From positions 2,721,649-2,785,648 of the forward strand of contig CP075370.1 in the NCBI GenBank assembly GCA_019454225.1: 64,000 nucleotides of DNA, written 5' to 3'. Shown here in pieces: positions 7,146 to 21,105 of the stretch; positions within the stretch are counted from its first letter, which is position 1; each line of letters opens with the position of its first letter. Made by a program: the position numbers and the translations under genes. The notes beneath the pieces are model-generated. The model worked only from the letters and a program-made list of their open reading frames with translations. It made no database searches and was not told the DNA's origin. The DNA is from Paracoccaceae bacterium. Lineage in GTDB: Bacteria > Pseudomonadota > Alphaproteobacteria > Rhodobacterales > Rhodobacteraceae.

Positions 7146-7415
7146 TTACTCGGCTGCCTCGGCTGCGGGGACCACCGAAATGAACGTACGGCCCTTGAGC
7201 CCGCGCTTGAACGTCACATGACCCTCGACCGTCGCAAAGATCGTGTGGTCGCGGCCCATGCCGACACCCGCGCCCGGATGCCAGGTGGTGCCGCGCTGGC
7301 GCACGATGATGTTGCCCGGAATGGCCGCCTGACCGCCGAACAGCTTGACGCCCAGACGGCGACCTGCGCTGTCACGACCGTTGCGGGACGAACCGCCTGC
7401 CTTCTTGTGTGCCAT
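7146..7415 (-). CDS. rpmA: 50S ribosomal protein L27
   Basis: [24 protein letters not shown] is the canonical L27 N-terminus; 89 aa. Confidence 0.97.
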
Positions 7416-7427
7416 GGAACGGGCTCC

Positions 7428-7886
7428 TTACGCGGTTGCGGCGTCGGCGGGCTTGGCCGCCTTGGCACGCTTGGGTTTGGCGGGTGCTTCCACAGCCGCG
7501 GGTGCGGTGCCATGCGCGGCGCGGCGCGCGGCGGCCGTTCCGGTCGCGGCCGCAACGCCGGTCGCCTCGGCGCCCGTGCCCAACACGTCGGTCACACGCA
7601 GCAGCGTCAGCTGCTGGCGATGGCCCTTGGTCCGCTGCGACGAATGCTTGCGGCGGCGCTTGACGTAGTGGATCGTCTTCTCGCCCTTGATCTGGTCGAT
7701 CACCTCGGCCTGCACGGCGGCGCCGGCCACGAAGGGCGTGCCGACCGTCAGCGTCTCGCCGCCGACCATCAGGATGTCGTTGAACTGGATCTTCTGTCCA
7801 GCCTCGGCATCAAGCTTCTCAACGCGCAGAACGTCTCCCGCCTGCACCTTGTACTGCTTGCCGCCGGTCTTGAGGACCGCAAACAT
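7428..7886 (-). CDS. rplU: 50S ribosomal protein L21 with Ala/Lys-rich C-terminal extension
   Basis: MFAVLKTGGKQYKVQAGDVLRVEKL is the canonical L21 start (internal ATG at 7886). It has a long A/K/P-rich tail, as in other alphaproteobacterial L21 proteins. Confidence 0.93.
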   Translation of the reverse strand: MFAVLKTGGKQYKVQAGDVLRVEKLDAEAGQKIQFNDILMVGGETLTVGTPFVAGAAVQAEVIDQIKGEKTIHYVKRRRKHSSQRTKGHRQQLTLLRVTDVLGTGAEATGVAAATGTAAARRAAHGTAPAAVEAPAKPKRAKAAKPADAATA

Positions 7887-8024
7887 GGGCCGCTTCCTTC
7901 TCTCGGTTTCCGCGCCCTGCGGCCCCGGATCGCTCCGGCGTTTGGTGCCTTCGGACAGCGCGCCCCCTGCGGGAGCGTCATCAATGTAAAACCCGGCAAA
8001 GCACAGGCCCCGCCGGGATGCGCG

Positions 8025-8053
8025 CTTATGATCCGCAGCCCCGGGCTTGTCAA
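8025..8053 (-). promoter_or_regulatory. Sigma70-like promoter for rplU-rpmA
   Basis: The minus strand reads TTGACA (8053-8048), a 17-nt spacer, then CATAAG (8030-8025), about 140 nt upstream of the rplU ATG. Confidence 0.5.
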
Positions 8054-8090
8054 GCGCCGGGCCCACGCGCGCGCGCCAGATCTCCGGCCC

Positions 8091-8966
8091 CTAGATGTCC
8101 TGCCCCATGAGTTGCAGCGCCGCCGCGCGGCCAAGGTCATAGGACACCTGGCCGAACACCGCGTCGAAGGCGGCGAACAGCGCGTGGTTCAGCTTCTGAC
8201 CCTGCGGACTCATCGAGAAGGCGACGTAGCCCTCAAGGTCGGCGTCCGACACCGGCCCGTAGGCCAGGGCAAGATAGGGGAACAGCCAGGCCTCGGTCTC
8301 GGCGCGGATCTCCGGTTCCTGCCCCCAGACATCGGCCAGCATCTCCTCCTCGCTCACGCCCTGGCCCATCGCCCCGGCGGCGGCCATGCCGCGGTAGAAC
8401 GAGAGGTTGGCGTTGAGCGCGCCCTGCACATTGGCCTCGATCAGGTCGTTCGCCTCGGCAAAGCGGCGCAGCAGGTCGAGCCGCGCATCGCCCCGTGCCG
8501 TCATGTCCTCGACCTCGATGCGGGCGGCTTCTTCCACCGCTTCGTCCAGCAGCGCCCGCCGCGCCTCGATCTCGAGCGTCAGGATGCGTCTGCCGCGATC
8601 CGTGCCGAAGAATGCCCGCGCGGCCGCGAGCGTGTCGGCATCTCCACCGATCTCGGCCGCCATCGCCGCCTCGAACCGCGCAAGCATGGTCGGCGGGTCA
8701 TAGATCGCCTGCACCGCGCCCGTCCAGTCGGCCCCGCCGCGCCCCGGGAACAGTTCGTCCTCGAGTTCGCTGCCATAGGCCAACCCCTCGTCCCGCATCA
8801 CGGCCAGGAAGTCGTCGATCTTCAGAAGCGCCGTCAGATCGGCCGCGCGCGCCGCGCTTTCGCCGGCCGCCTGTGCGAGCACACCCCGGGGCAGCACAAC
8901 CACCGGCGCGGCGGCAAGCGCGCCAACCAGGCAAACCGTCAGCAGTCGAATACGGATTCCCGGCAT
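8091..8966 (-). CDS. Secreted hypothetical protein, DUF2059-like
   Basis: Signal peptide MPGIRIRLLTVCLVGALAAAPVVVL...AQA (start ATG 8966). The C-terminal block LEGYVAFSMSPQGQKL resembles DUF2059; the family name is tentative. Confidence 0.55.
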   Translation of the reverse strand: MPGIRIRLLTVCLVGALAAAPVVVLPRGVLAQAAGESAARAADLTALLKIDDFLAVMRDEGLAYGSELEDELFPGRGGADWTGAVQAIYDPPTMLARFEAAMAAEIGGDADTLAAARAFFGTDRGRRILTLEIEARRALLDEAVEEAARIEVEDMTARGDARLDLLRRFAEANDLIEANVQGALNANLSFYRGMAAAGAMGQGVSEEEMLADVWGQEPEIRAETEAWLFPYLALAYGPVSDADLEGYVAFSMSPQGQKLNHALFAAFDAVFGQVSYDLGRAAALQLMGQDI

Positions 8967-9089
8967 GTCCACCCCCCGAACGGGCGCCCCATGCACCCTT
9001 CCCTTCGCAGGTAATGCCTGGCCCCCCCGTTGCCAAGCACCCGGCACAGGAGCCGGCCGTTTCCCGCCCGCAACCTGTCAGGATGCCCC

Positions 9090-9118
9090 TTGCAGCCCCT
9101 GTGTCACTTCGCTAAGAG
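9090..9118 (+). promoter_or_regulatory. Possible promoter of tRNA-Ser
   Basis: TTGCAG (9090-9095), a 16-17 nt spacer, then CTAAGAG, ending about 25 nt upstream of the tRNA 5' end. Confidence 0.3.
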
Positions 9119-9141
9119 CGCGTCACGAAGACCCCTGACGC

Positions 9142-9231
<90 letters not shown>

Positions 9232-9346
9232 CCCGAACGCCCCCGAAATCCAACGATCTCTGCCAGATGCGCCGGCGCGTTCGGAGAGTTAATGCAACCT
9301 TAGCGCCAGACTGATACTGCTTTCGGGCAACGACCCGGAGGAACCG

Positions 9347-10621
9347 ATGCGGCACGAAACCAAGTTTGCGGCCTGGATCAGGTCAGGCGGCAACAGCGTC
9401 TTCGTCTTGCCGCTTGGTCCGGTTCAGGCGCCGGAAGTCAAGTTCTCGGTGGTCCCTGACAGGCTGCTTGACAGCATCATCGACGATGCGCTGGCTACAG
9501 GCGTTGCCCGGCTGAATGGCTTTCTCCCCGAGGGTGTCAGCATTGACATCACGTCGGTCGACCTCACCGCGATCAGGGATCAACTGCGCAGTTCGGTTGC
9601 GGGTCGCCTGAACGAAACGGGCGTGCCGGTCAATCCCAACGACCCAGTCATCAATGCGATCCTTGCGCGATATGCTGAGGCGCTGAACGGCCACTTTCAA
9701 AGAGATGCGCTGCAGCTCGCAACCTACATCTGGCGCAGTCAGGACGATGCCCGTGTTCGCGCTGCGCATGCAGACCACGACGATCGGGTCTTCGCGTGGG
9801 CCAATCCTCCTGCCGGCGGGCATCCCGGCGAGGCATGGAATTGCCGGTGCACGGCAGAACCAATCATTGATCCCCAGATTCTTCCAGAGGGAGCGGTCTG
9901 CGACATCCTGACAGGGGATCGTCTTTCCGATGTATTCCCGGATGCCGACGAAGCCCGTCTGACGCAAGTTGCCAGGGAGATCGACCTGCAGATCGTGACG
10001 GCCGAGTTGAACAGTCCCGAACGACTGGCGCATTTCTTCGGTCAGGTGCTTCAAGAGGTCGGGCAACGAATGCGACTCGTGGAGAGCCTCGACTATCGGG
10101 CGGACCGCCTAGGATCGATCTTCAGCTACTTCAGGCGTAACCCGGAAGAAGCCTTGCTCTACGGGAGAACTGCCGACCATCCGGCAGATCAGGAAGCCAT
10201 CGCAAACCGTGCCTATGCGGACCGCAACGGCAACGGGAATGTCGAGAGTGGTGACGGGTGGAGATTCCGCGGTCGCGGTCTGAAGCAAGTCACCGGCCGC
10301 GCCAACTATCGGGCCTTCGCCGAAGAACACACGCGAATGTTCGGTGAACAGATCGACTTCGAGGCCGAGCCGGACTTGCTGGGAACACCGCGCTACGCCG
10401 TTCGTTCGGCCCTTTGGTTCTGGCACGCCAACAATCTCTTTTCGCTGGCGGACGCAGGTATTAACCGTGCTGCTGCCGATAGCATTACTGCAATCATCAA
10501 TCGTGGGACGGACTCCTATGGGCAGCGCTGGGAAAACGTTCGTCGGCTGAGCGAGTCGGGGGTCTTCGCAAACGTCTGTCGGTTCTCCGTCTCTCGCCCG
10601 CGCTTCGAGGATGCGGAATGA
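9347..10621 (+). CDS. MuF (SPP1 gp7-like) domain fused to a GH19/COG3179 lysozyme-like peptidoglycan hydrolase domain
   Basis: The MuF signature YIWRSQDDARVRAAHADHDDRVF..NPPAGGHPGEAWNCRCTAEP is followed by GH19-like blocks HFFGQVLQEVG, VESLDY, FRGRGLKQVTGRANY, ALWFWHANN and INRGTD. GGAGGA RBS. Confidence 0.8.
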   Translation: MRHETKFAAWIRSGGNSVFVLPLGPVQAPEVKFSVVPDRLLDSIIDDALATGVARLNGFLPEGVSIDITSVDLTAIRDQLRSSVAGRLNETGVPVNPNDPVINAILARYAEALNGHFQRDALQLATYIWRSQDDARVRAAHADHDDRVFAWANPPAGGHPGEAWNCRCTAEPIIDPQILPEGAVCDILTGDRLSDVFPDADEARLTQVAREIDLQIVTAELNSPERLAHFFGQVLQEVGQRMRLVESLDYRADRLGSIFSYFRRNPEEALLYGRTADHPADQEAIANRAYADRNGNGNVESGDGWRFRGRGLKQVTGRANYRAFAEEHTRMFGEQIDFEAEPDLLGTPRYAVRSALWFWHANNLFSLADAGINRAAADSITAIINRGTDSYGQRWENVRRLSESGVFANVCRFSVSRPRFEDAE

Positions 10622-11133
10622 GAAGCGCCCTTCGGCTCCTTGCTGTTGTCTTGCTTATGGGCCTCGCCAGCCGGTCCGTTGGTCAAACAATCTTCGATGG
10701 CCCTTCGGTAGAAACCGCTGAGCTCCGGGTTGAACTGCGACCACAAGGCGAGGACCGATTTGATATCTATCTGACCGACAAAACAACGGGCCGACAGGCA
10801 CACTACGAGTTTGACGGCGAGGGTGCGAACGATCCGGAACCGTTTCTGATTGTCGAGGGCCGCTACTGCGATACGTCGGTCATCCTGCTGACGATCGAGT
10901 TTCCTTGGCGGCATTCATTGCCGCAATACTCCCGCGTCTTGGACACCTACGCTTTTCGCATGTCGGACTTGGCTTATGTCGACATGACGGCTGGGCCGGC
11001 TACCGACATCGCCTTGCTCGACAGTTCTGAAACTGAAGCGGAAGACATGTCAATGCAAACACCGATCCTTGTTGAATGCATCGGGGATCGCGGTGGGAGC
11101 CTGTTCAGATTTGTAATGAAAACAGATGATTAG
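10618..11133 (+). CDS. Orphan secreted protein, candidate periplasmic immunity protein
   Basis: ATGA overlap with the upstream stop and GAGGA 6 nt upstream. N-terminal signal-like MRSALRLLAVVLLMGLASRSVGQ. The rest is acidic and soluble, and I recognise no family. Confidence 0.6.
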   Translation: MRSALRLLAVVLLMGLASRSVGQTIFDGPSVETAELRVELRPQGEDRFDIYLTDKTTGRQAHYEFDGEGANDPEPFLIVEGRYCDTSVILLTIEFPWRHSLPQYSRVLDTYAFRMSDLAYVDMTAGPATDIALLDSSETEAEDMSMQTPILVECIGDRGGSLFRFVMKTDD

Positions 11134-11153
11134 GATGTTAATCAGGTGGAGAA

Positions 11154-11183
11154 GGTTCGACGGCATGCCCATCCCCTCCGCCA
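11154..11183 (+). repeat. Degenerate direct repeat of the tRNA-Ser 3' end (attR-like)
   Basis: GGTTCGA-cggcatg-CCCATCCCCTCCGCCA compared with tRNA 9207-9231 GGTTCGA-at-CCCACCCTCTCCGCCA (7/7 plus 14/16 identities). Confidence 0.5.
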
Positions 11184-11241
11184 TCGACCCGCATCGAACC
11201 ATGGTCGAACGCTCGATTCCCCGTTGGACTGGCCAGAACGA

Positions 11242-11826
11242 TCAGCGGAACTGGTTTGCCCGTTTGTTCTGCGCTGCAAGACTGGCTGTCTCACTGATCC
11301 GTTTCGCCCGCGTGTCCGGCCGCCTCGCCTGCTTGATCCATTCCAGGATGCCGCGCCGGACGGATCGCGGAAAGGCGGCGAAATGCGCCGCAGCCTCGGG
11401 ATACATCACCATTGCGGCGGCCAGATCGACGGGCACCTCCAGCCGTTCGACGTCGTCGAGAAAGGCCCACGATCCATCGGCCCGTGCCGTATCGACAGCC
11501 GCCAGTCCCGCCGGCGCCATCCGGCCGGCCGTCGTCAAGCGCGCGACGCGCGCCTTGTTCGCCGCCGACCACGCGCTGCGAGGCTTGCGCCGCGAAAGAA
11601 GCAGCATCGTGCGCCCTGCGTCCAGCTTTCGCGGCAGGCTGTCCACCCAGCCGAAGCACAGGGCCTCTTCGACGATCGCATCGTAGGGCAGATGGAGGTC
11701 CGGCCTCTGCTTCTTCCATGTGACCAGCCAGATGCTGCCGGAGGTTGCGTGATGCTCCGCGAGCCAGGCGCGCAACTGTGACCGGCTTGTCACCTCGACC
11801 CGCGGCAGATTGCTGCCAGCCGCCAT
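11242..11826 (-). CDS. YdeI/OmpD-associated family protein
   Basis: WLVTWKK....L.YDAIVEEALCFGWVDS and the C-terminal FAAFPRSVRRGILEWI are typical of the YdeI family. TGATG coupling to the upstream gene (ATG 11826; GTG 11829 is also possible). Confidence 0.7.
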   Translation of the reverse strand: MAAGSNLPRVEVTSRSQLRAWLAEHHATSGSIWLVTWKKQRPDLHLPYDAIVEEALCFGWVDSLPRKLDAGRTMLLLSRRKPRSAWSAANKARVARLTTAGRMAPAGLAAVDTARADGSWAFLDDVERLEVPVDLAAAMVMYPEAAAHFAAFPRSVRRGILEWIKQARRPDTRAKRISETASLAAQNKRANQFR

Positions 11827-13019
11827 CACCTCTGCCCCCGGAACCAGTCGCGCATGTCATCCGCAACGATAGCAGCCTCCTCCCATTCAAGGAAATGCCC
11901 GCCCCGGTCGATATCGGTCCAGCGCTGCACGTTGTAGCTTCGCTCCGCCCAGGCGCGGGGGGTGGCGAACATGTCGTGCGGCGTCATCAGCATGGCCGTC
12001 GGCACCGCGACCCGGCCCCATTGGCCCGGGGCGCGCAGGGTCTCGTAGTAGAGCCGCATGGACGATCCGATGGTCCCCGTCGCCCAGTAGAGGGTGAGGT
12101 TCGCCAAGAGCCGGTCGCGGCCATAGCGGGCGACGAAATCGTCGGCGTCGGTCCAGGCGTGGAACTTTTCCAGCACCCAGGCGGCAAGACCCGCGGGGCT
12201 GTCGTTCAGTGCGACGGCAAGGGTGTCGGGCTTCGACGCATGCAGCATCGCGTAGGCCATCTCGGATTGCATCCAGGCTTGCGCGCGGGCGACGAATTCG
12301 GCCTCTTCGGGTGACAGGTCGTCGGGGACATGACCGATGTAGGGATTGGTCCCCGACAGGTGCAGGCCCATCAGCCGGTCAGGCGATTGCAGCGCGATCT
12401 GCTGCAGCACTCCGGCACCCAGGTCACTGCCCCGCCCGGCGAAACGGTCGTATCCCAGGACCCCGGTCATCAGCCGGGTCATCAGGCCGGCGATGCGCGC
12501 CACGCCCATGCCGCGCGTTCTGGGTTGAGCGGAAAAGCCGAAGCCCGGCAGCGAGGGCACGATCACGTCGAAACTCAGGCCCGCGCGTTCGGCGGTCAGG
12601 AGCGGGATCAGGTCGGTCATCTGAAGGAAGGACGACGGCCAGCCGTGCAGGACCAGAAGCGGGACACGGCGGCCCCCTTGCCCCGTGGCATGGATGAAGT
12701 GGATCGCCTCACCGTCGACCTCGGCCACGAACTGCGGCAGCGCGTTCAGGTCTCGCTCGACCGCACGCCAGTCGAACCCCTCGGCCCAGTGCTCGACCAA
12801 TGGACGGAGCCTGTCGGTGTCGATCCCATAGTCCCAGGCCGCGCCTTCGATGCGGTCGGGCCAGCGGGTCAAGCGCAGGCGGGTTTCAAGGTCTTCGAGA
12901 ACGGCATCGGGTACGGCGATGGTGAAGGGGCGTGCGGCCATGGCGGACACCTTTGACTGGGTTGGAAGGGGGAAAAGCGCGGCGACGGCGGTTGCCGTGA
13001 AGAAGTCCCGGCGGGTCAT
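11826..13019 (-). CDS. Epoxide hydrolase family alpha/beta hydrolase with a Tat-type signal
   Basis: EH N-terminal domain (FTIAVPDAVLEDLETRL..TRWPD), HGWP oxyanion motif and GSDLGA nucleophile elbow. Start ATG 13019 gives MTRRDFFTATAVAAL...VSA. Confidence 0.8.
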   Translation of the reverse strand: MTRRDFFTATAVAALFPLPTQSKVSAMAARPFTIAVPDAVLEDLETRLRLTRWPDRIEGAAWDYGIDTDRLRPLVEHWAEGFDWRAVERDLNALPQFVAEVDGEAIHFIHATGQGGRRVPLLVLHGWPSSFLQMTDLIPLLTAERAGLSFDVIVPSLPGFGFSAQPRTRGMGVARIAGLMTRLMTGVLGYDRFAGRGSDLGAGVLQQIALQSPDRLMGLHLSGTNPYIGHVPDDLSPEEAEFVARAQAWMQSEMAYAMLHASKPDTLAVALNDSPAGLAAWVLEKFHAWTDADDFVARYGRDRLLANLTLYWATGTIGSSMRLYYETLRAPGQWGRVAVPTAMLMTPHDMFATPRAWAERSYNVQRWTDIDRGGHFLEWEEAAIVADDMRDWFRGQR

Positions 13020-13106
13020 CGGCGGTTCCTTTCGGTTTCGATGCCCCGCAGTTTCTTCGATGCCGGAAGGTTGAAAAATCTGCGCTGAAGCCTCAGACTG
13101 TTGTCC

Positions 13107-14000
13107 ATGGAGGCAACACTGAACACCGATCACCTGCGCCTGTTCCTGACCGTGCTGGCGGCGGGCAGCTTCACGCGTGCGGCCAACCTCGCGGGCAGCG
13201 ACAAGGCGCATGTCAGCCGGATCATCGCCCGGCTTGAGGATCAGCTCGGCACGCGGCTGCTGAACCGATCGACCCGGTCGCTTTCGCCCACCGATGCAGG
13301 GCGGGAACTTGCGGTCCGTGCACGCGCGATCCTCGACGCACTTGCCGAGACCGAGGATGCGCTCAAGGGTCGTGCCGATCATCCGCGCGGTCGCCTGCGC
13401 ATAACCTGCGGCTACGAGTTCGGGCTGCTGGCGGTGAATGGCTGGGTGCGCGTGTTCCTGGACCGCTGGCCCGAGGTTTCGGTGGAAGTCGATTTCACCA
13501 ATCGCGTGGCGGATATCGTGTACGAAGGCTTCGACCTCGCCATCCGCGTCGGGCGCATGGCTGACAGCGACCTGATCGCGCACAAGCTGTGCGAAGTGAG
13601 CTATGGCTTCTACGCCGCTCCCTCATTCGTGACCGCGCATGGTGCGCCCAGGCATCCGGCCGAACTTGTCGCAGATGGCTTCATCGGCTTCACGGGTTCG
13701 CCCGCCGAGGTCGTGCGCGGCACCGAGACCTGCGCGCTGCCCGCGCGGCCCCGCTACCTCGCAAATACGAACATGGCCGTCCGCGACATGGCCGTCGCGG
13801 GCCTTGGCATTGCGCTGCTGCCCCGGTTCCAGGCAACGCCCTTCGTCACCACAGGAAGCCTGACACCGGTCCTGTCCGGCTGGACGCGCCAGCCCGTCGA
13901 GGTCCATGCCGTCATGGCCACAAGGCGCCGGATGTCCGCCCTGGTCCGCGCGTTCCTGGATGTGGCGAGGACAGCAAAGCTCGACGGAGCGGAGGCGTAA
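13107..14000 (+). CDS. LysR family transcriptional regulator
   Basis: The HTH LRLFLTVLAAGSFTRAANLAGSDKAHVSRIIARLEDQLGTRLLNRSTR is followed by a LysR substrate domain. The gene is divergent from the epoxide hydrolase. ATG 13107 (the track start at 13101 is TTG). Confidence 0.9.
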   Translation: MEATLNTDHLRLFLTVLAAGSFTRAANLAGSDKAHVSRIIARLEDQLGTRLLNRSTRSLSPTDAGRELAVRARAILDALAETEDALKGRADHPRGRLRITCGYEFGLLAVNGWVRVFLDRWPEVSVEVDFTNRVADIVYEGFDLAIRVGRMADSDLIAHKLCEVSYGFYAAPSFVTAHGAPRHPAELVADGFIGFTGSPAEVVRGTETCALPARPRYLANTNMAVRDMAVAGLGIALLPRFQATPFVTTGSLTPVLSGWTRQPVEVHAVMATRRRMSALVRAFLDVARTAKLDGAEA

Positions 14001-14244
14001 CCGCTCTCGTAGCCGCGAAATTGCGATGTCGGCCACGGCGGCGAGGCATTTCTTCGACACATCGCCGATCGCGTTGAAAAGAAGCGCGCCGGTTCCGGGG
14101 GTACGGCGGGGGATGCGCCCGGTCGGGATCCTTTGGGCTTGCGTGGCCCAGGATCCATTGCACTGCTGCGGCGATGCGCGATCGGCGAGCGTGCCCTTGG
14201 CTTGCGTCCTTGCACTGCCTAGGTGAACTGCACCGGAGGGCGCC

Positions 14245-15252
14245 ATGCATAAATTCTCGCTTCTTGATCTTTCCCCGATCCCGGAAGGGAAGACCGCCGC
14301 AGACGCGCTCGCCTGCACGATCGACCTGGCCCGCGCCGCGGAGGGGTTCGGCTATCACCGCTACTGGCTGGCCGAACACCACAACATGCCAGGCATCGCC
14401 AGCGCCGCAACCGCCGTTGTCATCGGGCAGGTTGCCGCCGCCACAACGTCGATGCGCATCGGCGCCGGGGGCATCATGCTGCCAAACCATTCCCCGCTCG
14501 TGATCGCGGAACAATTCGGGACACTCGCGACGCTGTTTCCCGGCCGGATAGACCTGGGGCTGGGCCGCGCACCCGGCACCGACATGGCCACCGCCCGGGC
14601 GCTGCGCCGCCACATGGCGCCGGACGACAGCTTTCCCCACGACGTCCAGGAACTGATCGGCTATTTCGGGGAGCCGACGGAGGGAAGGCATGTGCGGGCC
14701 ATTCCCGGAGAGGGGACGCAGGTCCCGGTCTGGATCCTCGGGTCGAGCCTCTATGGCGCCCAACTGGCCGCGCATCTGGGCCTGCCCTTCGCCTTTGCCT
14801 CGCACTTCGCTCCGGCGATGCTGGGCGAGGCGCTTGCCGTGTATCGCGGCACCTTCCGGCCTTCTGAGCGACTGCAGGAACCCTATGTGATGATCGCGGC
14901 GGGTGTCTGCGCTGCCGAGACCGACGCCGAGGCCGCGTTCCTGCGATCCTCGCAGGTTCTGGCGTTCGCGCGCCTCAGGACGGGGAAGCCGGGCAAGCTT
15001 CCCCTGCCCGTCCATGACATCGAGCAGGAGATTCCGGCGGCGGTCCTGGCGCAGGTCGGGCAGGCACTGTCCTGTTCGGCGACCGGCTCGCGCACGACGG
15101 TCCGGGACCGGCTGCAGGCGATCCTCTCGCTTCACGCCCCGGATGAACTGATGGTGACGGGGATGATACACGACCACAGTGCACGGGTCCGGTCCTTCGG
15201 GATCGCCGCAGAGGTCCTTGCCGAGTTGCGCGGCGGGATGGCGGCGGCCTAG
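14245..15252 (+). CDS. LLM-class flavin-dependent oxidoreductase (luciferase-like, YhbW group)
   Basis: [12 protein letters not shown]...[20 protein letters not shown] is the characteristic N-terminus. GGAGGG RBS. Confidence 0.85.
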
Positions 15253-15364
15253 CGAACGGGCCACCGCCATTGGCAGGTTCCGCGGGTCCAGCGGCACCGA
15301 GGCCCCCCGCGGCGAGGGTGTCGGAGCGGCACACCCTGCCCTCGCCGGTCGGACTGTTCGCGAG

Positions 15365-16876
15365 TCACTCGGCCACGCCCAGGACAATCGTGGTGCCCAG
15401 CCGTTCCAGCGTGAAGTCGTCGATCAGGATGCGCACCACGACATCCCATTCGCCCGCGGCCGGCAGGATGGCATCGGCCTGCCACAGCCCATCGCCGACC
15501 GAGCGCCCGGAGACCTCGACCGGGCCGAGTCCGGTGCCGGGATGGGTGAAGACAAGATCCACCGCCTTGGGATGAACCGGATGGAAATCAGGATCATGCG
15601 GCGCGATCTGGATGCGGTTGACACCCGGCTGACCGGGCAGGATCTGCAGGTCCCCCCCTGAAAGCCGTCCGTGGACATGGGCAACCACCACAGGTTCGGC
15701 CATGGCGCGGGGCGGCGGGGTCAGGCGGAACGCGCCGGTCAGCGCCAGCAGCATCGCCATCAGGGCGATCTCGGTCCTCAGCGACCAGCAGAACGCCCCC
15801 GCCTGACCCTGCGACGCGGAAGGGGCAAGGCGCCAGCGGTTCAGGGCGGCCAACCCGAGGATCATTGCGGCAAGGCCCAGCTTTGCCGAAAGCACCTGGC
15901 CATAGGCCGTGGCCAGCAGCACGCCCGCCCCGCGGAGCCCGGGTTCCAGCTGCACCCAAGACAACGCGGCACCCGACGCAACCAGTATCACAACCAGGGG
16001 CGGGGCGACGCGGCCAAAGGGTGCAAGTGCGGCCATCCGCCCGCCCGGCGTGACCAACAGGCAGAGCGTGCCGGACCAGAACAGCGCCATCGCCGCATGC
16101 AACGCCACAACAGCGGCCGACCACGGCGCAGCCGTGCCGGCATGGCCCGCCACCGCGAAGGACAGGCCGGCGGAACACAGCGCCGCAACCGCCATGCCGC
16201 GCGACCCCGCCATCGCCATCGCAAGGGCCCCGCCCGCCAGGACCGCCGCCGTCAGGAACGGCGAGTGGATGAGCAAACGCCACGCCCCGGGCGTGCCCAG
16301 CGTCGCAATGCCCCCGGCCAGATCGGCCGCCTGCCCGGCCAGCAACACCAGTGCAGCGGGGCCCACGCCCCAGGCACCCACGCGGACCGCCCTCGGCACA
16401 GACGAACGGAACAGTGCCGCCGCCGCCAGCCCACCGACACCGAAGGCCAGTGACAGCGTCAGCGCCGCCCGCGCGGCCGCAGCAAGCTGCGCGGCCGCCT
16501 GAGCGGCGGCTGCCTCGATCACGGCGGTTTCCGCTCCGATCGAGAAGACATGTGTGCCGGCCAGCGGATGCCCGTCGGCCGAGACAACACGCCAGCTCAG
16601 CACATGCGTGCCCCGCGCTGCATCCCCGGGCACGGTCACGATCAGACGGTTTCCGACTGCGCGCGCGGCGGTTTCGGCGGTCGTCCCGTCGGGCATCGTC
16701 CAAAGCGCCGCCAGCGGTCCGACCGGTTCGTTGAACGTCAGCACCACCTCTGGGGGGGCGATGTCGAGAATTGCGCGCGACGGTGGCTCGGCGCCGCGCA
16801 ACTGGGCATGGGCAAGCGCCGCGCATGGCGCGAGGATGAGCGCCACCACAGCCAGGAAAATGCGAGCAAACAACAT
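15365..16876 (-). CDS. Copper transport/resistance protein, CopC-CopD fusion with extra C-terminal beta-domain (YcnJ-like)
   Basis: Signal peptide ending ALA, then HAQLRGAEP (CopC), about 8 hydrophobic CopD segments, and a roughly 110-aa C-terminal soluble domain. Confidence 0.8.
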   Translation of the reverse strand: MLFARIFLAVVALILAPCAALAHAQLRGAEPPSRAILDIAPPEVVLTFNEPVGPLAALWTMPDGTTAETAARAVGNRLIVTVPGDAARGTHVLSWRVVSADGHPLAGTHVFSIGAETAVIEAAAAQAAAQLAAAARAALTLSLAFGVGGLAAAALFRSSVPRAVRVGAWGVGPAALVLLAGQAADLAGGIATLGTPGAWRLLIHSPFLTAAVLAGGALAMAMAGSRGMAVAALCSAGLSFAVAGHAGTAAPWSAAVVALHAAMALFWSGTLCLLVTPGGRMAALAPFGRVAPPLVVILVASGAALSWVQLEPGLRGAGVLLATAYGQVLSAKLGLAAMILGLAALNRWRLAPSASQGQAGAFCWSLRTEIALMAMLLALTGAFRLTPPPRAMAEPVVVAHVHGRLSGGDLQILPGQPGVNRIQIAPHDPDFHPVHPKAVDLVFTHPGTGLGPVEVSGRSVGDGLWQADAILPAAGEWDVVVRILIDDFTLERLGTTIVLGVAE

Positions 16877-16934
16877 CGGCGTTCAGCCTTTGCGGGGGCC
16901 CCCGGCCCCATGCCGGGGCCGCGGGCGGGACGCC

Positions 16935-17450
16935 TCAGTTGCTGGCGGGGACGATCCGGATGCCCGGTGCAGGGCTCGGCAGGTCATGGCCATCCTGACC
17001 AGCCGCCGGTATCTCGATCCAGCGTTCGGCCTTGGTCGCGCATTCCTGCACGATCGGGATATACAGCGTCTCGCCCGCCGGGAGGGCATCGGTGAACCGG
17101 CCGCGGAAGATGAACTCGTCGTAGTGTTCGTCGGACAGTTCGCCCTCCCAGACGATTTCCTTGACGCCTTCGGCGACTTCGCTGCCGTAAAGCGTGTAGG
17201 ATCGCGCGTAGGCGCCGCTGACCGTGCTCAACGTCCAGCCTGCCTTGGGCATCGGCTTTACCGAGATCACACCCTCGGGGACCTGGATGCGCACGCGCAA
17301 CGTGGCCTCGCCCTCGCAGCCATGCGGGATGCGGGCGACGATCCGCTGGGTCGAGTTCTGTGCCGCCTCGGCATTCTCGAAGGTGGCGTGGGCCAGGGCG
17401 GCCGGTGCACCCAGCACCAGGGCGGCCATCGTGCAGATGACTGTTTTCAT
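16935..17450 (-). CDS. YcnI family (DUF1775) copper-binding protein
   Basis: MKTVICTMAALVLGAPAALA then HATFEN...IPHGCEG. Start set to ATG 17450. Confidence 0.8.
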   Translation of the reverse strand: MKTVICTMAALVLGAPAALAHATFENAEAAQNSTQRIVARIPHGCEGEATLRVRIQVPEGVISVKPMPKAGWTLSTVSGAYARSYTLYGSEVAEGVKEIVWEGELSDEHYDEFIFRGRFTDALPAGETLYIPIVQECATKAERWIEIPAAGQDGHDLPSPAPGIRIVPASN

Positions 17451-17590
17451 GTTCGTTTTCCTGTGATGTCGTTGTCTTGCTTCCCCTGCGGACGCCAGCG
17501 CCAGATCGGCCGCACCGAACGCAGCCGGCCACAGGCGCCCTTGGGGGGTGCTGTCAGGGGCAGACTGCGGCGCAGTTGCCCCGGTTGCCG

Positions 17591-17971
17591 TCAGATCTGC
17601 AGCACGGGAGGGCCGCGCGCTGGGGGCAGCCCGATGATCGCGCCCGCGGCGCACAGGCTCGCAACGGGCGCCTGAACGGTCCGCGCGCTGCGGATCAGCG
17701 CCGGCAGACCCGGCGCCGCAGGCGGCGCGGCGAACGACTTGGAAAGCGTGCAGGCCGGACAATCACCCGTCGCATGGCCGGGCGTGCCCGAATGGTCCGC
17801 ATGGCACAGATCGTCGACGGATCCACCGGCGGCGAGGAACGCCAGAAGTTGCGGATCCGGTGCAACCGCCGTCGCGGAGAGAGGGCGGTGCGCCATAGAC
17901 ACGGCGACAACCGCCACCGTGCAGATCACGGCCAGCAGGCGGGAAAGGAACTGCGCCAGTCTACGATCCAT
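17591..17971 (-). CDS. Small membrane/secreted Cys/His-rich protein, DUF2946-like
   Basis: One hydrophobic segment (LLAVICTVAVVAV) and the motif CHADHSGTPGHATGDCPAC. It lies upstream of ycnI-like on the same strand. Start ATG 17971; the family name is tentative. Confidence 0.45.
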   Translation of the reverse strand: MDRRLAQFLSRLLAVICTVAVVAVSMAHRPLSATAVAPDPQLLAFLAAGGSVDDLCHADHSGTPGHATGDCPACTLSKSFAAPPAAPGLPALIRSARTVQAPVASLCAAGAIIGLPPARGPPVLQI

Positions 17972-18085
17972 GCCGTTATCTATGGCAGAACAGCCAAGGC
18001 CCGCAATGCGGATCAGTCCGCGCCGCACATGCGGGGCGCGATCCAGGCGCGCGGCAGATCGCCGCCCACATGCGCCCTGGCAGGG

Positions 18086-18805
18086 TCAGCATCCCGCCGA
18101 CAGCCCCCCTGCGTCCGCCCGGGCCTCTTCCGGGTCCGGGAAGGTCCAGTCGTCCTGACCGGCGGGCGCGGGCTGCAGGGCGCTGATCCGGCGATAGACC
18201 GCGCGTGCCGACAGAAGATGCGCGCGCATCGTGGCCTCGGCCCAATCCGTGTCCCGCGCGGCAAAGGCATCCACGAGGTCACCGTGCTGCGCATTGCTGC
18301 GCGCCAGTTCGTGCAGCGTCCAGTTGCTGAAGGTCGGGCTGACGACGGGCTTGCGTGCCACCAGGTTGACCAGTTCGGCGAACAGGGCGTTTCCGCCCTG
18401 CGCCCAGATGACGCGATGGAACCTCGCGTTCAGTTCGCGATAGAGCCGCCGGTCGGGCCCGGCGTCATGCAGCGCCGATTCCATGTCGGCGTGCAGCGCG
18501 CGCAGGTTGTCGACGAACGGTTTCTCGGCCCGCGCCATCGCCATGCCGACCGCCACGGGTTCAAGGGCAGACCGGGCGGTGAAGATGTGGATCACCTCAG
18601 CGGGATCGAGATCGACAAGCACGGCGCGGCGATAGGCCTCGCGCCGGATCACGCCCTCGGCCTGAAGTCGGCGCAGCGCTTCGCGGATCGGGGTGCGGCT
18701 GACACCCAGGCGGGCACCAAGTTCACCCTCGGGCAGCACGTCACCCCCGATATAGACCCCTGCGGCGATCAGGGCCCGAATCTTGTCGTAGATATCGTCG
18801 GCCAT
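18086..18805 (-). CDS. GntR family transcriptional regulator (FCD/FadR-type C-domain)
   Basis: The wHTH LPEGELGARLGVSRTPIREALRRLQAEGVI is followed by an all-helical C-terminal domain. It is the last gene of the ABC operon (24-nt gap). Confidence 0.88.
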   Translation of the reverse strand: MADDIYDKIRALIAAGVYIGGDVLPEGELGARLGVSRTPIREALRRLQAEGVIRREAYRRAVLVDLDPAEVIHIFTARSALEPVAVGMAMARAEKPFVDNLRALHADMESALHDAGPDRRLYRELNARFHRVIWAQGGNALFAELVNLVARKPVVSPTFSNWTLHELARSNAQHGDLVDAFAARDTDWAEATMRAHLLSARAVYRRISALQPAPAGQDDWTFPDPEEARADAGGLSAGC

Positions 18806-18829
18806 GTCCGGTCCACTTCCTGCCCCGCC

Positions 18830-20008
18830 CTACGCGAACCCACGCGCATGCAGCCAATCCGTAACGACGCCAGTCGCCTCTGCAAGCTTTTCGGGTTGAT
18901 TGACGAAGTAATGATTGGCGCCCTCGATCACCGTCATGTGGCGGTCCTGGGATGCCACGGCAGCAAAGATCGCGGATGTGTGCGGCTGCGGGGCGGCGTC
19001 GTCGGCTCCGCATTCCACCGCCAGGAACGGCACCGTCACATCCCGGCCCGTCACCAGCGAGTTCGCGCGGCTGTGGGCGGGCGACCACTGGGAAAGCCAG
19101 CTGCGCAGGGTCGAGAACCGCGCGAGCCCGGCGGGGCCGTTGTTCACGGTTTCCGGGTGCCCGAGAAAGCACCAGCCTGGTCGGCGCCCGTTGGGGTCGA
19201 TCGAGGGATCGAGGAACCGGGGATCCGCCATCGTGCGATGGGTAATGAACGAACGTTCCAATTCCTTGCCGCGGCGGCTGCGCAGGTCGGCCAGCCGTTC
19301 GAGCACCCGTGCCGTGATCCGCTCCATCCGGGCGGATTGCGCCGCCCGGAACCGCGCAAGGAAGTCCGGTCCATACGGAGTCGTCCGGTTTTCATACCCC
19401 GGATGATAGAGATCGAGCTCCGGGTCGCGGTCATCGGGATCGTCCTCGGACCGCACCGAGGGGTCGAGCCATTCCGCGAGCAGATGCGCGCGCGAGGAGT
19501 GGGCGGCAAGGCTCAGCACCGCATCCGCCGGGATCAGGCCCGCCCCGGCCACATCAACCGGATCGCCGGCTGGTGTCTGGGTGATCGTCGGCCGTTCGGC
19601 CTGCGACTGGTACAGCATGGTCAGCGATCCGCCGCCGCTCCAGCCGCAGAGCACCACCCTGTCGTAGCCCCAGTCCTGGCGGGCAGCCCGGATGTAGGCG
19701 CCAAGGTCCAGCAGGACGTTTTCCATGATCAGCGCGGTGTCGTTCCGCTGATAGCGGCTGCCCGCGCACAGCACATGAAAGCCCCGCTCCGCCAGTGCGC
19801 GCGGCAGCGGCAGCAGTTGCAGCGTCGATGCCGGATGCATGAAGATCAGCAGCGTCCGCGAGGGACGGCCCTTGGGGCGGATCAGAATGCCCTCCAGGTG
19901 CGTCAGCCCCTGCGAGCCGGTAAAGCCATAGGTTTCGGTATAGGATCGGGTCGCGGAAAACGCGATGTGTTTCCAGTCGTGCTGCAGGTCGGTCATGTCT
20001 GCGGTCAT
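18830..20008 (-). CDS. Alpha/beta hydrolase
   Basis: LLIFMHPAS and the nucleophile elbow GWSGGGS. The start ATG 20008 forms ATGA with the stop of the upstream ATPase. Confidence 0.7.
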   Translation of the reverse strand: MTADMTDLQHDWKHIAFSATRSYTETYGFTGSQGLTHLEGILIRPKGRPSRTLLIFMHPASTLQLLPLPRALAERGFHVLCAGSRYQRNDTALIMENVLLDLGAYIRAARQDWGYDRVVLCGWSGGGSLTMLYQSQAERPTITQTPAGDPVDVAGAGLIPADAVLSLAAHSSRAHLLAEWLDPSVRSEDDPDDRDPELDLYHPGYENRTTPYGPDFLARFRAAQSARMERITARVLERLADLRSRRGKELERSFITHRTMADPRFLDPSIDPNGRRPGWCFLGHPETVNNGPAGLARFSTLRSWLSQWSPAHSRANSLVTGRDVTVPFLAVECGADDAAPQPHTSAIFAAVASQDRHMTVIEGANHYFVNQPEKLAEATGVVTDWLHARGFA

Positions 20009-21105
20009 CCCAGTGGTCGGGCCAGAATTCCGGTATCGCCGTCCTCTGTCACGCGATCTGCCGCGGGACGCGCAAGGCCGGGAAACTGACCCGTCAGGGT
20101 CATGTCGTGGATATGGCACCGCACGCGGCGCCCCCCCGGCATCAACCCGAGTTGCGGCTCGACCGCGCGGCAGAGGTCGGTCGCATGCGGGCATCGCGAG
20201 GAAAATCGGCAGCCGGGCGGAATGTTCATCGGCGAGGGCACATCGCCACGAAGTTCCACGCGGTCGGGCGCCTCGGCGGGATTCATCCGGGGGATCGCGG
20301 CCATCAGCCGCTGCGTATAGGGATGCAGCGGCGCAGCGAGCACGTCTTCCGCCGGGCCCTCCTCGACGATGCGCCCGAGATACATCACCGCGACATGGCG
20401 GCAGATATAGCCCACAGTCGCGATGTCATGCGAAATGTAGAGGACCGCCAGGCCAAGGTCGCGCGACAGTTCGTCCAGCAGTTCCAGCACACTGGCCTGG
20501 ATCGACACATCCAGCATCGACACAGGCTCGTCCGCCACGATGAAGCGCGGCTCCAGCACGAGCGCACGCGCAATGGCCACGCGCTGCCGCTGGCCGCCGG
20601 AAAGGTCGCTGGGGAAGCGGTCAATGTTCTCGGCTGCTGGCATCCGCACGAGATCGAGCGCCCGCGCAACCCGACGCCGCCGGTCAGCCGCGTCGCCGAT
20701 ACGGTGGATGATCAGCGGCTCCTCGATGATCTGGCCGACCGTCAGGCGCGGGTTCAGCGAACTGTAGGGATCCTGGAAGATGATCTGTGCCTGACGGCGA
20801 TAGGCCTTGAGCCTGCGGCCCTCGACATGGGTCACATCCTCGCCGCGAAAGGTGATCCCGCCGCCGGTCGGCTGGTGCATCCGCACCAGCGACATGCCCA
20901 GCGTGGACTTGCCGCATCCGGATTCGCCCACGAGGCCCACGATCTCGCGCTCCCGGATCGACAGATCGACCCCGTCCAGCGCCCGCGCGACCGCCGGCCT
21001 GACACCCGCCAGCGCGCTGAAGATGCCGGTCCTGCCCTGAAAATGGGTCTTCAGGTCGCGCGCATCGACGACCACCGGGGAGAGCGGAGATGGGGGGGCG
21101 GTCAT
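20005..21105 (-). CDS. ABC transporter ATP-binding protein (DppF/OppF-like)
   Basis: Walker A GESGCGKST, signature LSGGQRQRVAIARAL and an oligopeptide-type C-terminal Cys-rich tail. ATGA coupling at 21102-21105. Confidence 0.9.
   Translation of the reverse strand: MTAPPSPLSPVVVDARDLKTHFQGRTGIFSALAGVRPAVARALDGVDLSIREREIVGLVGESGCGKSTLGMSLVRMHQPTGGGITFRGEDVTHVEGRRLKAYRRQAQIIFQDPYSSLNPRLTVGQIIEEPLIIHRIGDAADRRRRVARALDLVRMPAAENIDRFPSDLSGGQRQRVAIARALVLEPRFIVADEPVSMLDVSIQASVLELLDELSRDLGLAVLYISHDIATVGYICRHVAVMYLGRIVEEGPAEDVLAAPLHPYTQRLMAAIPRMNPAEAPDRVELRGDVPSPMNIPPGCRFSSRCPHATDLCRAVEPQLGLMPGGRRVRCHIHDMTLTGQFPGLARPAADRVTEDGDTGILARPLG

Follow-up and report, generated by a model that had tools for sequence, protein, structure and literature searches.

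How does a two-gene islet that encodes no recombinase come to lie exactly at the 3′ end of an intact tRNA gene? This question is raised by a stretch of 64,000 nucleotides (64 kb) from a Paracoccaceae bacterium (GenBank assembly GCA_019454225.1, contig CP075370.1, positions 2,721,649 to 2,785,648 of the forward strand), which is called the window in the following. Here, 1952 bp carrying two overlapping open reading frames (ORF1 and ORF2) follow directly on a tRNA-Ser(CGA) gene and end with a degenerate, tRNA-like repeat (R). An earlier interpretation made from the letters alone (the sequence-only reading) had taken the islet for foreign DNA inserted site-specifically at the tRNA-Ser 3′ end, of which only a two-gene cargo has been retained. 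In this study, the islet was compared with DNA loci fetched around homologues, around matches to R or from relatives; these loci carry labels of the type L001. The site-specific insertion is supported, and the genes are absent from the locus in relatives. We conclude that the islet belongs to a family of non-autonomous elements of about 1.95 kb at tRNA-Ser ends, which would be mobilized in trans and would carry a toxin/immunity cargo; to this explanation as a whole we assign a probability of roughly 0.6.

The target gene and the parts of the element are as follows (att, attachment site; attL, attR and attP, its left, right and element-borne forms):

9142-9231, + strand: tRNA-Ser(CGA), called by ARAGORN; the sole tRNA gene in the window, intact target gene on the attL side
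9225-9231, + strand: TCCGCCA, the last 7 nt of the tRNA; the sole exact core in common with the far end of the element
9232-11183, + strand: whole non-autonomous integrative element, 1952 bp; homology between copies starts at 9232 and stops at 11183
9232-9346, + strand: non-coding left arm, CCCGAACGCCCCCGAAATCCAAC ... GTTAATGCAACCTTAG ... GGAGGAACCG, with GGAGGAACCG as ribosome-binding site
9347-10621, + strand: ORF1, 424 aa; MuF-like N-terminal domain and GH19 muramidase/chitinase-like domain
10618-11133, + strand: ORF2, 171 aa; N-terminal signal peptide, all-beta, candidate periplasmic immunity protein
11146-11183, + strand: R, the element-borne att repeat, GTGGAGAAGGTTCGACGGCATGCCCATCCCCTCCGCCA, 38 bp; a pseudo-tRNA-Ser end with a second TCCGCCA at 11177-11183

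A discrete unit with exact boundaries at several tRNA-Ser genes

An element with identical ends was found in at least 11 contexts in Rhodobacteraceae/Paracoccaceae, and its length ranges from 1942 to 1967 bp in ten intact copies. Homology between the copies opens right after ...CCGCCA with CCCGAACGCCCCCGAAATCCAAC and closes at (GT)GGAGAAGGTT-S-GA...CAG-N-CCC-R-T-Y-CCCTCCGCCA, i.e., at the CCGCCA of R; beyond both ends, the flanks are unrelated. The two genes travel together in all fetched contexts, with ORF2 behind ORF1 in every fetched copy and with different neighbors each time. Isolates whose genomes have the cassette include Rhodobacter calidifons, Defluviimonas salinarum and Tabrizicola. 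The copies are located at the following sites:

directly behind tRNA-Ser(CGA): the window copy
directly behind tRNA-Ser(GGA): L015-17, L128 (Paracoccus alkenifer) and L137
directly behind tRNA-Ser(TGA): L018 and L135-136
in tandem arrays, behind another copy of R: L011-13, L021, L131 (Rhodobacter calidifons) and L132-133
behind a truncated tRNA-like end adjoining an insertion sequence (IS): L020

An intact tRNA-Ser gene lies directly upstream of the element in the window and in L015, L018, L128, L135 and L137. The copies at the TGA site of L135 and at the GGA site of L137 are 99% identical, and the cassettes of L020 and L021 are 100% identical, with the same right flank and different left junctions.

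At the left junction of L020, a metagenome-assembled genome of Albidovulum, the truncated tRNA-like end itself follows a transposase of the IS240/IS6 family, and in L021, a Logan assembly, the copy of R in front of the cassette follows an IS240 fragment. The difference between the two junctions suggests that the hot spot was rearranged through the action of an IS.

The two non-coding arms of the element, a left one of 115 bp and a right one of 50 bp, are 78–88% identical in most copies, with 79–84% for the left arm between most copies; towards the divergent copy in L018, identity is 52% in the left and 69% in the right arm. This conservation persists in pairs with a synonymous divergence (dS) of about 1 and an overall identity of 68–70%. 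Since the arms are conserved despite a dS of about 1, they should be functional, as att arms and/or as promoter of ORF1. Placed in front of ORF1, the left arm is a candidate for the P′ arm of attP and/or for the promoter region; a sigma-70 consensus promoter was not detected in it. Both genes are under purifying selection, with ratios of non-synonymous to synonymous divergence (dN/dS) of 0.06–0.22 for ORF1 and 0.15–0.28 for ORF2, and the element is thus maintained and not decaying. Together, these data demonstrate a discrete unit with exact boundaries, distributed over several sites and conserved in its genes and arms, and a mobile element is by far the most probable identity of the islet. It arrived as a ready-made mini-element. 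The local decay implied by the sequence-only reading, which saw a retained two-gene cargo, is contradicted by the same 1.95-kb unit in at least 11 contexts, including copies of 99–100% identity at different sites.

Within the far repeat, a 30-nt segment located 20 nt past ORF2 (11154-11183) reads GGTTCGA-cggcatg-CCCATCCCCTCCGCCA, which mirrors the tRNA end at 9207-9231, GGTTCGA-at-CCCACCCTCTCCGCCA. Their gapped local alignment reaches a score of 27, compared with 16.6 ± 1.9 in dinucleotide shuffles of 9232-11400, of which 2 in 1000 scored at least 27; when the window was otherwise cut into 2.2-kb chunks, no score above 21 was obtained for any of these 119 on either strand. The att-like repeat that the sequence-only reading had pointed out was thereby confirmed by the shuffling test. 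For GAAGGTT-N8-25-YCCGCCA, a pattern derived from the family, the window contains one match against an expectation of 0. In its organization, R resembles a collapsed tRNA-Ser with a 5′ acceptor-strand-like part GGAGAAGG, the T-loop TTCGA and a 3′ acceptor-strand-like part CCCCTCC-GCCA, while its internal 12 nt differ by lineage (GACGTCAG, GATATCAG, GCCCGCAG). Rfam recovered the same tRNA-Ser(CGA) and nothing more between 9000 and 11400, and thus did not call R at 11146-11183 a tRNA. In the fetched loci, 35 sequence variants match the R pattern, although a few of them look like chance matches.

The origin of R follows from its constancy. Its sequence, including the non-tRNA prefix GGAGAA and the 7-nt spacer, is the same at CGA, GGA and TGA sites, while the host tRNAs each retain their own isoacceptor-specific acceptor stem up to TCCGCCA. 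Because each host tRNA keeps its own stem up to this point, the exchange must fall within the 7-nt core; a core of this size would be typical for the overlap region of a tyrosine recombinase. Because R is constant across the three types of sites, it is not a displaced host end but the attP-derived half of the element. The sequence-only reading had regarded the far repeat as the displaced original tRNA end, which does not hold, as the same R ends copies at tRNA-Ser(GGA) and tRNA-Ser(TGA), whose 3′ ends differ.

In L132 (~7210-8580), an IS of the IS110 family (DEDD_Tnp_IS110 and Transposase_20) lies inside a copy of R, with the left junction ...gtcaggaGAAGG and the right junction ccacaaaaGAAGGTTCGACG...CCGCCA, and the same right end abuts R at three more loci (start of L131, start of L133, and L059 1-45). 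As its right end lies against R in several loci, the att site itself appears to be what this IS inserts into.

The composition of the islet sets it apart from its surroundings. Its G+C content is 58.9% compared with 67.4% for the window, and no other 1952-bp stretch in the 64 kb is lower. The G+C content at third codon positions (GC3) is 0.68 in ORF1 (z = −3.8) and 0.61 in ORF2 (z = −5.7), compared with 0.82 ± 0.04 for 40 genes of the window. The change of composition 3′ of tRNA-Ser(CGA), which had been noticed in hand counts, is therefore borne out by sliding G+C values and by the GC3 outliers. On both sides, the element is enclosed by chromosomal genes:

8091-9047, − strand: DUF2059 gene (Pfam), conserved chromosomal left flank outside the element; the genes for L21 and L27 lie further left
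11242-11829, − strand: YdeI/OmdA-like gene (Pfam), right chromosomal flank outside the element; its GC3 of 0.80 is host-like

The left flank with obg, GNAT genes, L27, L21 and DUF2059 as well as the right flank with YdeI/OmdA, epoxide hydrolase, LysR and onwards consist of ordinary chromosomal genes. In the 27 genes between 1 and 37 kb that were scanned with Pfam, only housekeeping and metabolic functions and no phage genes were found.

The order L27-L21-DUF2059-tRNA-Ser(CGA) holds in most of 12 relatives examined and is complete in eight. The two cassette genes are absent from this locus in L001-L010, in L259 (Pseudotabrizicola alkalilacus) and in L260; the relatives L001-L010 were reached via the DUF2059 protein, which is 40–50% identical, and are too distant for the empty site and its YdeI flank to be compared strictly. 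An empty form of the site was obtained from L154 and L250, which came from a scan of viral contigs with a tRNA-end pattern. In both, T-arm...TCCGCCA is directly followed by CTTGCCC..CGAAAGCGTTCTCCCGATCCG..GCGGCCGGA, which is terminator-like, without any R, and the same CTTGCCC flank comes after R in L132, in L135-137 and in many other islands. Among the 80 of 120 listed contigs with the tRNA-end pattern, none is in common with the list of R-bearing contigs, and a scan of viral contigs with the left-arm motif gave a single chance match (L127).

It was also considered whether R together with the CTTGCCC... flank could be an old and fixed part of the chromosome. This was rejected, since empty sites without R exist and R was found with at least five unrelated flanks. 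Within the flank, the conserved terminator-like sequence CTTGCCCTCGCGAAAGCGTTCTCCCGATCCGGCTGCGGCCGGATTTT occurs after R in L055, L059, L067-L069, L071, L077-L079, L132 and L135-137 and directly after the tRNA end in L154 and L250, often with type I restriction-modification and YgjP-like genes next to it. It may be either the native terminator of the tRNA or the left end of a defense island.

The candidate toxin and immunity genes

ORF1 is composed of two domains:

9347-9916, + strand: short MuF-like N-terminal domain, aa 1-190, assigned by Pfam Phage_Mu_F and by sharing within the family
9908-10537, + strand: GH19 domain, aa 188-397, assigned by PHROG and PDB matches

The Pfam model Phage_Mu_F (PF04233) matches aa 118-170 with 44.3 bits (cutoff 29.6) at model positions 58-111 of 112, and the His/Cys-rich MuF core is recognizable as ...HxxHDD...GGHPG...NCRC. 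The second domain matches the endolysin family PHROG 181 (5e-50) and GH19 endolysins in the PDB, namely 9eoi (6e-30 over aa 189-394) and 4ok7 (2e-19). The sequences Q-E-V and V-E-S of ORF1 align to H-E-S and V-E-N of 9eoi, and the two glutamates of these GH19 motifs (E237 and E246) do not vary among 17 homologues; we take them to be the catalytic pair. Homologues of ORF1 form 529 clusters among the candidates searched. Among the matches listed, most are exactly 424 aa long, with identities from 95% down to 61%, and they originate from Albidovulum, Tabrizicola, Pseudorhodobacter, Ruegeria and many metagenomes. No full-length match to ORF1 was found in 50,697 phage records or in IMG/VR. The AlphaFold2 (AF2) model of ORF1 had a predicted local distance difference test score (pLDDT) of 51, from a shallow alignment of 61–95% identity, and was kept out of the fold search.

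ORF2 has no Pfam or PHROG family, and its AF2 model (pLDDT 80) is all-beta. A protein 100% identical to it belongs to a metagenome-assembled genome annotated as Paracoccaceae bacterium, probably the one from which the window derives. Its start overlaps the stop codon of ORF1 (ATGA), and it diverges faster than ORF1. In two independent cases, ORF1 is inactivated and ORF2 intact. In Paracoccus alkenifer (L128-L130, 9315-10516), ORF1 has an internal deletion of about aa 135-370, and in L135-136 it contains an in-frame stop, while the 99%-identical copy in L137 has an intact ORF1. Such retention of ORF2 next to a broken ORF1 is the pattern expected for an orphan immunity gene. From the ATGA overlap, the faster divergence and the retention, it follows that ORF2 may be the immunity partner of ORF1.

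A further argument comes from the relatives of the N-terminal domain. On IMG/VR contigs (L022-L054), the first ~190 aa of ORF1 are fused to unrelated C-termini in proteins of 352, 505 and 559 aa, each of which is followed by its own small cytoplasmic ORF (101, 102 or 134 aa) matched to the type of C-terminus. In L023 (9629-11547), such a pair adjoins a tape-measure gene. An exhaustive search with the N-terminal domain yielded 4207 proteins via the MuF core, and a subset of 270-540 aa aligns from residue 1. Judged by this domain architecture, ORF1 and ORF2 on balance probably form a polymorphic-toxin/immunity pair. ORF1 would then be a cell-wall-degrading GH19 variant of a MuF polymorphic toxin, and ORF2, exported to the periplasm where the muramidase acts, would neutralize it.

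The same mobile element could also carry a cargo that is not a weapon, i.e., a module for lysis or wall remodeling, consisting of an endolysin and an accessory protein, that serves a prophage or a gene transfer agent (GTA) elsewhere in the genome. The GH19 domain is indeed closest to phage endolysins, ORF1 has no signal peptide, as is the case for canonical endolysins, and GTAs are known from nearly all of these bacteria. However, endolysins do not have MuF head-protein domains, and a constant N-terminus with swapped C-termini and matched downstream ORFs follows the logic of polymorphic toxins. ORF2 is predicted to be a soluble secreted beta protein and not a holin or spanin; its retention next to a broken ORF1 and the patchy, mobile distribution of the cassette also speak against such a module, which we consider rather unlikely.

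For the toxin/immunity pair, delivery of ORF1 through its MuF domain in the capsid of a helper phage or GTA is a matter of speculation. The cassette would then be a double hitchhiker, which borrows a tRNA-Ser integrase to move and a phage or GTA capsid to deliver the toxin, with ORF2 protecting kin; we regard this combination as doubtful.

Candidate helpers and the proposed origin of mobility

The islet encodes only ORF1 and ORF2 according to Pfam and PHROG, so that the earlier statement that it contains no recombinase is supported. For the rest of the window, the same statement stands for 1-37 kb, which was covered by the Pfam scan, while 37-64 kb was reached only by a phmmer search with one P4-type integrase (from L064), which had no match in the whole window. 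Potential helpers were found elsewhere. A scan of IMG/VR gave about 18 genuine copies of R at the ends of other prophage or island contigs. The genes adjoining them encode lambda-type portal, capsid, tail tube and tail tip proteins, type I restriction-modification and other defense functions, and two recombinases, namely one large serine recombinase and the tyrosine integrase of L064. The latter is of P4 type (Arm-DNA-bind_3, Phage_int_M and Phage_integrase); when the ORFs of the window and those of all loci fetched to that point were searched with it by phmmer, it matched only itself.

Two integrase-bearing elements use the same type of site. In Pseudotabrizicola alkalilacus (L259), the genome of the L064 integrase, a 12.2-kb element (7878-20224) lies exactly between tRNA-Ser(GGA) and a copy of R. 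It is phage-satellite-like, with genes for the P4-type integrase, an excisionase-like HTH_17 protein, TerL, HNH, capsid and S78 protease, and fills most of the gap between two convergent tRNA-Ser genes 14 kb apart, (CGA) on the + strand and (GGA) on the − strand. In Sagittula sp. MA-2 (L260, 9823-20461), a homologous 10.5-kb element with integrase, TerL and capsid genes occupies the DUF2059-tRNA-Ser(CGA) locus. Its integrase is 56% identical to that of L064, the integrase gene starts about 150 bp from attR, and attR repeats the tRNA end exactly over 15 nt. This clade therefore has integrases that target tRNA-Ser genes at their 3′ ends and leave behind an attR of the R type.

From these observations, the following mechanism can be proposed. 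The cassette would insert at the extreme 3′ end, with the core TCCGCCA, of any tRNA-Ser gene by site-specific recombination, for which a tyrosine integrase would be provided in trans. This integrase could come from larger elements with the same target and an R-type attR, the candidates being prophages, phage-satellite-like elements and defense islands, and tandem arrays behind one tRNA would allow accretion and co-excision with a neighbor. Mobilization in trans by a tyrosine integrase, in the manner of a cis-mobilizable element (CIME), thus appears probable to us.

Several results weigh against the explanation as a whole. In about 12 cassette contexts, the surrounding 10 kb contained no helper integrase, and among the 27 genes called between 1 and 37 kb of the window (Pfam scan), 0 encode an integrase or transposase. 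The cassette has only about 36 bp of R in common with the two integrase-bearing elements, and the left ends differ; a comparison of the cassette arms with the att-proximal regions of L259 and L260 for arm-type motifs gave only 8-mers resembling ribosome-binding sites. No circular junction (ORF2 3′ end - R - CCCGAACG...) was observed, and a search of metagenome contigs for the empty-site junction of this locus, CTCTCCGCCATCGACCCGC, gave 39 matches, all of them chance matches inside unrelated genes, the pattern being too short. On the side of the cargo, ORF1 has neither a signal peptide nor linked secretion or capsid genes, leaving its export unexplained, and the model of ORF2 has no significant fold match in PDB or BFVD, and none to any known lysozyme inhibitor.

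A further point is raised by L014 (Ruegeria arenilitoris, 9513-12378), in which a 63%-identical ORF1-ORF2 pair lies in opposite orientation in a 2645-bp islet without an integrase. This islet is flanked by a 152-bp direct repeat of 78–86% identity, consisting of the 3′ half of tRNA-Thr(CGT) and about 105 bp downstream, and GCCCTACTA motifs recur near both of its ends. Preferential survival of the cargo after the decay of larger elements may therefore play a part. The occurrence of the same cargo alone between tRNA-derived repeats in two cases means either that it persists or hitchhikes unusually well, or that it itself promotes that state; some small probability is thereby left for more radical readings.

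In the sense of the sequence-only reading, the islet would be a remnant formed in situ, i.e., a prophage or island at this tRNA that lost all but two genes, with the far repeat as displaced tRNA end. This would account for the lack of a recombinase in or near the islet; an integrase-bearing element does use the very same locus in L260, and a deletion in such an element may originally have given rise to the family. For the islet itself, an origin of this kind is largely refuted and very unlikely: the 1.95-kb unit, with the same ends, is found behind three different tRNA-Ser genes as well as in tandem arrays, R retains its non-tRNA features where the host tRNA end differs, copies of 99–100% identity lie at different junctions, and genes and arms are under purifying selection. 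If the copies derived from one ancient locus by rearrangement, shared flanks would be predicted, which were not seen.

Alternatively, the element could be minimal and autonomous, with ORF1 (e.g., via its MuF core) or a conserved host enzyme catalyzing the insertion at tRNA ends. The lack of an integrase in about 12 contexts would fit, as would the same cargo in two unrelated att systems (tRNA-Ser and tRNA-Thr) and a left arm that is conserved yet not common to the integrase-bearing elements; in addition, the N-terminal 100 aa of ORF1 have no assigned function. The MuF core, however, is common to thousands of phage head proteins (4207 matches), for which we know of no recombinase activity. Phage-like contigs that have neither R nor tRNA ends also encode homologous N-termini joined to unrelated C-termini of toxin-like character, copies with inactivated ORF1 still have intact ends, and a 7-nt core beside a tRNA-like arm is the signature of a tyrosine integrase, so that we consider autonomy to be very unlikely and retain mobilization in trans. 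A coincidental C-rich repeat next to ordinary chromosomal genes, as might arise in a genome of 67% G+C and as 2 in 1000 shuffles would allow by score, is refuted by the repeat being the exact end of homology in every copy, by the outlying composition and by the absence of the genes from the locus in relatives.

Comparison with known systems

Literature searches brought up neither this cassette nor any MuF-GH19 fusion. As the family shows, the lack of an integrase does not by itself make a tRNA islet a dead remnant; the present one is conserved, recently mobile and has hundreds of metagenomic relatives. Programs for the detection of islands will overlook such units if they demand an integrase. 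The cassette provides a test case for trans- and cis-mobilization in Alphaproteobacteria, for a shared degenerate att site mimicking a tRNA, and for competition at tRNA-Ser hot spots. If the toxin reading is true, the MuF-type toxins would come to include an effector that degrades the cell wall and whose periplasmic partner has no known fold match, and the question would arise how ORF1 reaches its target without linked phage genes.

CIMEs are defined by intact attL and attR sites and the absence of integration and transfer genes (PMC6323972). Like the CIMEs of streptococcal integrative and conjugative elements (ICEs), the cassette lies between att sites, lacks genes for an integrase or for transfer, is found in tandem with other elements at one target and presumably depends on a helper recombinase. 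Unlike them, it is found in Alphaproteobacteria, targets the 3′ end of tRNA-Ser and comprises only 1.95 kb; moreover, its likely, putative helpers are phage-like and not ICEs.

With the Islander-type tRNA islands and prophages that have P4-type integrases (PMC4383910), the cassette shares insertion at a tRNA 3′ end, an intact tRNA and a tRNA-like far repeat, and the R-type attR is also present on the integrase-bearing element of L259. In contrast to these islands, it has no integrase, the exact repeat is limited to 7 nt, and the far repeat is a degenerate, element-borne mimic. Prochlorococcus tycheposons (bioRxiv 10.1101/2020.12.28.424599) are likewise located at tRNA hot spots, with older elements pushed outward and partial tRNA repeats between the units. 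The tycheposons of that study carry an integrase of their own, by which they were identified, whereas the cassette is integrase-less yet conserved and present at multiple sites.

Regarding the cargo, the GH19 phage endolysins 9eoi and 4ok7 have a homologous catalytic domain with both motif glutamates conserved; in ORF1, unlike in these endolysins, the domain lies behind a MuF-like domain, is accompanied by a secreted partner and is not part of a lysis cassette. Temperate phages encode MuF polymorphic toxins (Jamet et al. 2017, PMC5576092) that resemble ORF1 in having a MuF N-terminus, a variable C-terminal effector and a small downstream gene, and the relatives of ORF1 with other C-termini sit in phage-like contigs as well. 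The differences are that the MuF part of ORF1 comprises only about 190 aa, of which Pfam covers just the last 55 residues, that the effector is of the GH19 type, that the putative immunity protein is periplasmic, and that the pair has its own mini-element instead of a prophage; the main text of PMC5576092 contains none of the words lysozyme, chitinase and peptidoglycan. The cassette thus misses one defining feature of each of two known types of loci, namely the integrase of an autonomous tRNA island and the prophage setting of a canonical MuF toxin locus.

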